Notes: a model not told the origin generated them from the letters alone. A stretch of DNA of 64,000 nt from Escherichia coli (GCF_050920415.1 NZ_CP169309.1); one strand, 5' to 3'. Positions 62,096 through 62,245 are shown, numbered from the stretch's first letter. Program-made: numbers and translations.

Positions 62096-62245
62096 CCTTA
62101 GAGCCTGGTTCAACAGGCGTAATTGTTGAAGGCAGTTTGAGGCCGGACAGCGCGGAAAAACCGGAGCGTACACGTAGTACGTGAGGATTTTGAGCACTGC
62201 CCGGCCTCAAAATGGCAAATAAAATAGCCTGATGGACCAGGCTCT
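62096..62245. repeat. About 150-bp nested imperfect palindrome in the hemE-nfi intergenic region (intergenic repeat-like element; family not determined)
   Basis: Outer arms TTAGAGCCTGGTTCAACAGGC / GCCTGATGGACCAGGCTCTTAG, inner arms TTTGAGGCCGG / CCGGCCTCAAAA, centre ACGTAGTACGT quasi-palindrome. Confidence 0.6.

Follow-up and report, generated by a model that had tools for sequence, protein, structure and literature searches.

What is the large palindrome that lies between hemE and nfi, and does it belong to this locus? The two genes, identified from the ORF list and from the annotation of identical or near-identical E. coli records, are encoded on the minus strand of the 64,000-nt stretch of DNA analysed here (the window), which is E. 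coli DNA with 100% matches to E. coli chromosomes. The spacer between them is 156 bp long and contains nested inverted repeats.

The palindrome and its insertion site

An initial annotation had described the hemE-nfi spacer as a nested imperfect palindrome, and the inverted repeats, together with folds far beyond those of shuffled sequences, bear this description out. The outer arms (62090-62118 and 62227-62255) are 29 nt long and 79% complementary, the inner arms (62133-62162 and 62185-62214) are 30 nt long and 80% complementary, and the centre is a small hairpin, GCGTAC-ACGTA-GTACGT. Both pairs of arms are longer than annotated, at about 29-30 nt each and not the 22-25 and 11 bp originally given. 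As a single strand, the spacer folds into one long hairpin. The predicted energies were -73.7 kcal/mol for minus-strand RNA, which is the mRNA sense (z = -9.1), -80.2 kcal/mol for plus-strand RNA (z = -10.6) and -42.8 kcal/mol with DNA parameters (z = -8.4), and in each of the three cases none of 200 shuffles matched the native fold. The annotation had named a predicted structure no more stable than shuffled controls as grounds for rejection, and the fold is far more stable than these. From the inverted repeats and the z-scores we conclude that the palindrome is real and well beyond chance. The limits first drawn, 62096-62245, were right to within 2-3 bp; the true limits are 62098-62247, comprising an element of 144 bp and two TTA triplets (Table 1).

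Table 1. Positions of genes and sequence features at the hemE-nfi junction, counted from the first letter of the window
Feature	Position	Strand	Remarks
nfi (endonuclease V)	61417-62088	minus	Downstream gene; Shine-Dalgarno sequence and ATG intact, unpaired in the predicted fold
Left target-site duplication, TTA	62098-62100	plus	TAA on the gene strand; opens the nfi Shine-Dalgarno sequence TAAGGAG (plus-strand 62094-62100)
Palindromic element (GAGCCTGG...CCAGGCTC)	62101-62244	none	144 bp; absent from K-12 and ATCC 25922; homologues elsewhere
Opposite-end hairpin GCCTGGTTCAACAGGC, then GTAATTGTTG	62103-62118	plus	Weaker, inward-facing mirror of the terminator-like module; -9.4 kcal/mol
Main stem (inner long arms, 62133-62162 and 62185-62214)	62133-62214	none	Inverted repeats, folds, compensatory changes in 19 enteric copies
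Apex AACCGGAGCGTAC-ACGTA-GTACGTGAGGATT	62159-62189	plus	31 nt; cross-phylum conservation; sole such site in the window
Terminal hairpin AGCCUGGUCCAUCAGGCU, then AUUUUAUUUG (62225-62216)	62226-62243	minus	Intrinsic-terminator-like module, from a pattern scan
Right target-site duplication, TTA	62245-62247	plus	TAA on the gene strand; hemE stop codon
hemE (uroporphyrinogen decarboxylase)	62245-63309, including stop	minus	Upstream gene; frame unaltered by the insertion

The corresponding alleles of K-12 MG1655 and ATCC 25922 are exactly 147 bp shorter, that is, by 144 + 3 bp, and in these empty sites (...CTCCTTAGCGGTG...) hemE and nfi lie 9 bp apart. Aligned with the empty alleles, the window reads ...CTCCTTA-GAGCC...GGCTC-TTAGCGGTG, with the layout CTCC-TTA-GAGCCTGG...CCAGGCTC-TTA-GCGGTG. 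On the gene strand the empty allele is CGC-TAA-GGAG-xGATT-ATG, in which a single TAA serves as stop codon for hemE and opens the nfi Shine-Dalgarno sequence. After insertion, the TAA at 62247-62245 is still the hemE stop codon and the TAA at 62100-62098 is still part of TAAGGAG. Since the TAA was duplicated, hemE keeps its stop and nfi its Shine-Dalgarno sequence, leaving both genes undamaged and the hemE product unaltered. The duplication was read from the alignment of filled with empty alleles, and the hemE stop from the ORF list. A 5-bp duplication, CTNAG, was dropped in favour of the 3-bp TWA, as the copies in Klebsiella, at qseE-qseG and at pheS match on both sides over 3 bp only. A target of the same type as the hemE-nfi junction occurs on a Pantoea agglomerans plasmid (locus 1502-1662), where the element lies in the malF stop codon TAA that overlaps the malG Shine-Dalgarno sequence (TAA-GGAG-TTGTT-ATG).

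The hemE-nfi site is filled in 308 of 5426 complete E. coli genomes (~6%), including strains O121:H19, APEC O2-211 and O166:H15, and is empty in about 94%. The palindrome is a strain-polymorphic insertion, rather than a trait of the hemE-nfi locus as such. Among filled strains, the flanks (61700-62088 plus 62248-62650 of the window) and the element have diverged to different extents. Relative to O121 RM8352, 36 of 800 flanking positions differ and none of the 144 element positions does; relative to strain 98200 the counts are 32/800 and 2/144. Between the filled strains compared, flank divergence is 2.5-4.5% and the element differs at 0-2 of 144 positions. At the flank rate ~6.5 differences would be expected in the element, and by our own estimate the Poisson probability of finding none is ~0.0015. 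A single genome of the 5426, that of strain MFDS1022581, matches the 561-bp region at 99% identity or more (at 100%), and the nearest other E. coli copy of the element is 87% identical by blastn. The variation of the element thus lies below that of a neutral old insertion, which points to recent or recurrent insertion, to short-patch recombination or to selection on the element.

A dispersed family of enterobacterial palindromes

The likeness to long palindromic intergenic repeats of enterobacteria that the initial annotation had noted, and with it the expectation of further genomic copies, proved well founded. The element belongs to a dispersed family of ~145-150 bp that practically all E. 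coli carry and that extends to other Enterobacterales, with arms kept by compensatory changes. A blastn search with the spacer found homologues in 5425 of 5426 E. coli genomes, at 23,152 places, with a median of 5 copies per genome (range 1-9; 6 in K-12 JM109). Four copies were placed in MG1655, at cysP-ucpA, qseG-glrK, rlmL-ycbX and pheM-pheS. The pheM-pheS copy is in the pheST leader, 24 nt past the attenuator, and the rlmL/ycbX copy sits amid divergent promoters. The copy at qseE/glrK-qseG lies between adjacent same-strand genes in the same orientation as the hemE-nfi copy, and those at pheS, at malFG and in Klebsiella have the opposite orientation. Outside E. coli, homologues were found in Klebsiella, Pantoea (malF-malG), Salmonella, Citrobacter, Enterobacter, Serratia, Yersinia, Pectobacterium and Aeromonas.

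Well-preserved copies carry a TTA or TAA triplet on either side, in direct orientation. The triplets are TTA/TTA at hemE-nfi, at qseE-qseG, in Klebsiella and in Salmonella, TAA/TAA at rlmL-ycbX and pheM-pheS, and TAA/TGA in Pantoea. An alignment of 19 enteric copies gave 45 consensus pairs, 21 of them with double compensatory changes, which indicates that the palindromic arms are actively maintained.

Several copies have features of their own. On a Klebsiella pneumoniae plasmid (locus 1500-1650), an ABC-transporter ATPase ORF runs ~20 nt into the element and stops at a TAA in the conserved GCGTAATTG, so that the repeat supplies its last codons and its stop. The K-12 copies at pheM-pheS (locus 3985-4135) and qseG-glrK carry point mutations in the otherwise invariant apex (GCGTAT and GAGAATT; GTGAAGATT). 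Composite copies, in Yersinia and in the 'Proteobacteria' MAG CTSoil_132, contain an extra insertion of ~57-75 bp straight after GAGGATT (ACTCGCTTCGCTC...GTTCAAAATGCC...); at two composite loci an ERIC-like TGAATCCCCAG segment comes next, and these look like nested small elements. Spread by phage was considered and discarded, with only 21 matches in IMG/VR.

Among named repeats, the closest resemblance is to the RSA repeats of E. coli K-12, which are reportedly treated by Blaisdell, Rudd and Karlin and in a 1999 survey by Bachellier, Clement and Hofnung. Table 1 of PMC5172473 gives RSA repeats of 150/151 bp, in 6 copies, for the original K-12 GenBank record, and the intergenic elements called 'BEE95' are equated with RSA in PMC3751351, where Bachellier and Hofnung 1996 is cited for this. 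The present family agrees in length (~150 bp, here 144 + 3 + 3 = 150), in number (the six copies of the K-12 record and the 6 places in JM109) and in being an imperfect, extragenic palindrome common to enterobacteria. We therefore consider the family very likely to be RSA, an assignment that draws on copy number, length, architecture and host range and not on a consensus sequence. The NC_000913.3 annotation contains no RSA features. The hemE-nfi copy is absent from K-12, and its inner stem is unusually perfect (GAGGCCGG/CCGGCCTC, as against GGACACGG/CCGGGNCC in other copies).

Other repeat families fit less well. ERIC/IRU, with which comparison had been suggested at the outset, is a 127-bp MITE. 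Like the element, it is an imperfect palindrome of comparable size scattered through these genomes, often transcribed and polymorphic between strains, but it has different ends, core and length. The element does not match the ERIC core: the best alignment to the ERIC1R and ERIC2 core had 13 of 22 positions in common (at least 9 mismatches on either strand). The 56-bp boxC is unlike the element in size and architecture. REP/BIME was likewise rejected, with at least 15 mismatches to the 34-nt PU consensus within the element. The window does contain ordinary REP/PU repeats, which depart from the 34-nt consensus at no more than 4 positions; they start at plus-strand positions 11267, 15852, 15943, 20080, 23291, 42249 and 42347, and are unrelated to the palindrome. 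Two further elements are similar in habit and unrelated in sequence. These are SPRITE of Streptococcus pneumoniae, a small repeat for which a motif like a rho-independent terminator is described, and Chunjie of Geobacter, a MITE described inside an operon that it does not disrupt, with 9-bp duplications (passages in PMC10969869 and PMC3184786).

The element shows the traits of a MITE. It has inverted ends (GAGCCTGGTTCAACAGGC versus GCCTGATGGACCAGGCTC), a 3-bp duplication verified against the empty site, small size, multiple copies and presence/absence polymorphism. Six more enteric copies have TWA flanks, as do 7 of the 9 Syntrophus copies (see below). As to coding capacity, only a spurious 55-codon GTG ORF crosses it. 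Among arm-matching sequences in ~1 Mb of loci we found no autonomous IS with the same ends, and a parent-IS search by arm k-mers in the examined loci returned only more diverged mini-elements, mostly from Scalindua. A 3-bp TWA (TTA/TAA) duplication is the signature of IS5-family and PIF-Harbinger-type DDE transposases. Tourist-type MITEs and PIF-Harbinger and IS5-family elements (IS1031/ISL2-type) share with the present family both terminal inverted repeats and this duplication; here, however, the conserved part is the centre and not the termini. A DDE transposase that targets TWA, with chemistry like that of IS5 or PIF-Harbinger, may have moved the element in trans; mobilisation as such we infer from the duplication and the presence/absence polymorphism. 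We hold it to be highly probable that the palindrome is a mobile element of 144 bp, MITE-like and non-autonomous, from a dispersed enterobacterial family, most probably the "RSA" of K-12.

The element in the probable hemE-nfi transcript

Because hemE and nfi are only 9 bp apart in the empty allele, the element very probably lies inside a common hemE-nfi transcript. On the gene strand, no promoter that would drive nfi was predicted inside the element. A terminator-like hairpin of 6-7 bp, GC-rich, begins 1 nt past the hemE stop codon, with a local fold of -9.7 kcal/mol (first 30-40 nt of transcript). On the transcribed strand the module consists of a GC-rich hairpin and then a U-tract, as in an intrinsic terminator, and termination may occur there. 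Few parts of the enteric copies are as well conserved as the DNA block AAATAAAATAGCC. At the other end of the element, the nfi Shine-Dalgarno/ATG region GGAGCGAUUAUG is single-stranded in a predicted fold of 165 nt.

RNA polymerase leaving hemE would then meet the terminator-like hairpin with its AUUUUAUUUG, next a hairpin of about -74 kcal/mol, and finally a free nfi Shine-Dalgarno sequence. Some termination and/or RNase III-type cleavage could partially uncouple nfi from hemE, both transcriptionally and translationally, and the hairpin could protect the 3' end of hemE mRNA. We expect partial uncoupling of nfi together with 3' protection of hemE to be the most likely consequence of the insertion, and think of it as a by-product that is tolerated, not as a function that has evolved. 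The same orientation at qseE-qseG, the opposite orientation of other copies and the 94% of strains that lack the element counsel caution about a strong block or a locus-specific function.

Selection could nevertheless have made the element a cis-acting RNA of the hemE-nfi operon, as an attenuator or terminator, an RNase III site or a 3' stabiliser that sets the hemE:nfi ratio. The hairpin is very stable, it and the U-tract stand directly after the hemE stop codon on the transcribed strand, and the element differs at 0-2 of 144 positions where its flanks differ by 2.5-4.5%. Family-wide, among the matches listed, the mRNA between co-directional ORFs outside viral contigs carries the minus sense in preference to the plus sense by ~4:1, at 26 versus 7 for ORFs of at least 150 aa and 21 versus 5 for ORFs of at least 200 aa, counts that derive from crude ORF calls. 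However, 94% of E. coli express nfi from the 9-bp junction in the absence of the element, and the element recurs, in either orientation, in settings as unrelated as the pheS leader, the divergent promoters of rlmL and ycbX, and malF-malG. No promoter-like site was seen on the gene strand. We regard such a selected role as unlikely, and prefer to see in the palindrome a mobile element whose effects on the operon, if any, are tolerated.

The apex module in other phyla

The 31-nt apex at the palindrome centre extends beyond the enterobacteria. A scan for GCGTAC-N(4-6)-GTACGTGAGGATT, with one genome per species, returned at least 120 stretches. Non-enteric matches listed include Aeromonas, Ca. Scalindua (Planctomycetota; dozens of copies), a Syntrophus MAG and Pseudodesulfovibrio (both Desulfobacterota), another deltaproteobacterium, a Chlorobiales MAG, Nitrospira, Patescibacteria, Rickettsiaceae (Rickettsiales), Polaromonas, Rhodoferax and Acetobacter. 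Among the matches listed, the motif always centres an imperfect palindrome of ~120-150 bp with lineage-specific arms, and the consensus AACCGGAGCGTAC-N4-6-GTACGTGAGGATT is essentially invariant in palindromic elements across phyla. AACCGGA, seven bases outside the search pattern, was present in 99 of 118 distinct copies among these matches.

The consensus folds into a 6-bp hairpin, GCGUAC/GUACGU, closed by an invariant G.U pair. Beneath the hairpin lies a 3x2 internal loop rich in purines (GGA/GA) and closed by C-G and G.U, and this is followed by CC/GG, a bulged A and AA/UU. Directly outside the invariant block two pairs covary freely, the first occurring as AU 10, GC 9, UA 8 and CG 6 times. 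The apex may resemble the sarcin-ricin loop of 23S rRNA (AGUACGAGAGGA-CCGGAG), k-turns and the 11-nt tetraloop receptor (CCUAAG/UAUGG), and we make no claim from this. To tell which strand is the functional one, the two were compared: the plus strand gives the better whole-element fold in 107 of 126 copies, the G.U counts in the arms show no asymmetry (310 versus 361), and the enteric arms have no energy difference between strands.

In Syntrophus, the flanks are matching TTA or TAA triplets in 7 of 9 copies, which suggests that the same insertion chemistry accompanies the same apex. The family is conserved at its centre and variable at its ends, the reverse of what recognition by a transposase would lead one to expect. 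Taken together, it is possible, and we propose it tentatively, that RSA is the enterobacterial branch of a pan-bacterial superfamily of TWA-flanked palindromes in which the apex AACCGGAGCGUAC-(4-6 nt)-GUACGUGAGGAUU is essentially invariant and arms and termini are lineage-specific. If true, the apex would be a structured RNA or single-stranded DNA module, either read by a universally conserved host machine or required by a mobilisation mechanism not yet described.

Individual lineages add observations of their own. In a Nitrospira MAG, one copy interrupts the 16S rRNA gene near model position 207 with an insert of 129 nt (locus 1210-1342, minus strand), and a second is in the rRNA leader, ~60 nt upstream of the 16S 5' end (locus 1560-1650); both are carried in the plus (core) sense of the rRNA transcript. 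Ca. Scalindua SCAELEC01 has very many copies, often with a third terminal repeat 19 bp outside one end, and many more in which the apex has diverged from the exact pattern. In Bacillus halodurans, the primer Bh5'NGS1, given in PMC1702495 for the 5' exon of the group IIC intron B.h.I1, contains GACAGACCGGAGCGTACAC, and the exon is described there as common to four genomic copies. This primer sequence, which is what the comparison covers, hints that the B.h.I1 intron adjoins a member of the repeat superfamily in Bacillota.

An apex that is strand-asymmetric and invariant across phyla demands a sequence-specific partner, and this raises the question of a role at the DNA level. The palindrome might work by extruding as a hairpin or cruciform, or it might bind a host protein, for which a nucleoid protein, a topoisomerase and a single-stranded-DNA enzyme of priming or recombination are candidates; such a function would account for its spread. 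The fold with DNA parameters is far beyond shuffles, and a loop of 4-6 nt on a fixed stem favours a hairpin over a duplex site for a dimer. On the other hand, we recognised no known protein-site consensus, the comparison of G.U with A.C in the arms points to neither strand, and nothing links such a role to hemE-nfi. We judge it highly improbable as an explanation of the palindrome.

The apex also raises the possibility of a small RNA. The best Rfam match of the window is to sX9 (RF02228), on the minus strand at 62131-62182 (31.7 bits, E = 0.0018), and covers the apex and one arm, which would fit a small RNA related to Xanthomonas sX9 that starts near the apex on the minus strand. A Polaromonas member of the superfamily scores 46.6 on the corresponding strand, relative to a gathering threshold of 44. 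The window, at 31.7, stays below that threshold, and no family exceeded its threshold in the window (Rfam run in E-value mode at the locus, and in gathering mode on 12 distant loci). The element has no sigma-70-like promoter on the minus strand, and the region lies within a probable mRNA. Moreover, sX9 is described as a discrete sRNA and the element is a palindromic repeat, yet sX9 itself has the look of a piece of such a repeat and not of a gene in its own right; a passage in PMC9029176 places it among the most multiplied 'sRNAs' in bacteria. We give this origin scarcely any credence. Rfam matches to mir-584, mir-310, S15 and snoRNA families were set aside as chance.

A chance palindrome, or simply a hemE transcription terminator, is practically negligible as an explanation: terminator-like hairpins are present, but the structure spans 144 bp with z of about -9 to -10, has thousands of homologous copies and was inserted with target duplication.

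The explanation of the palindrome as a mobile repeat is an ordinary one: enterobacterial palindromic repeats of this kind are known, and this is a new copy that varies between strains. At this locus the insertion is of minor importance; in about 6% of E. coli it separates two tightly coupled genes, hemE and nfi, the second of which acts in DNA repair. It also illustrates that an element targeting TWA can enter a TAA stop codon overlapping a ribosome-binding site and harm neither gene. The larger point is that a largely forgotten E. coli repeat has an invariant, structured 31-nt centre in common with abundant palindromes of distant phyla, and that part of this is already listed as the 'sRNA' sX9. 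This cross-phylum apex is a lead worth pursuing separately from the hemE-nfi locus. Should it hold, many 'sRNA' annotations would be copies of mobile elements, and the apex would be a testable candidate for a new RNA or single-stranded DNA recognition module.
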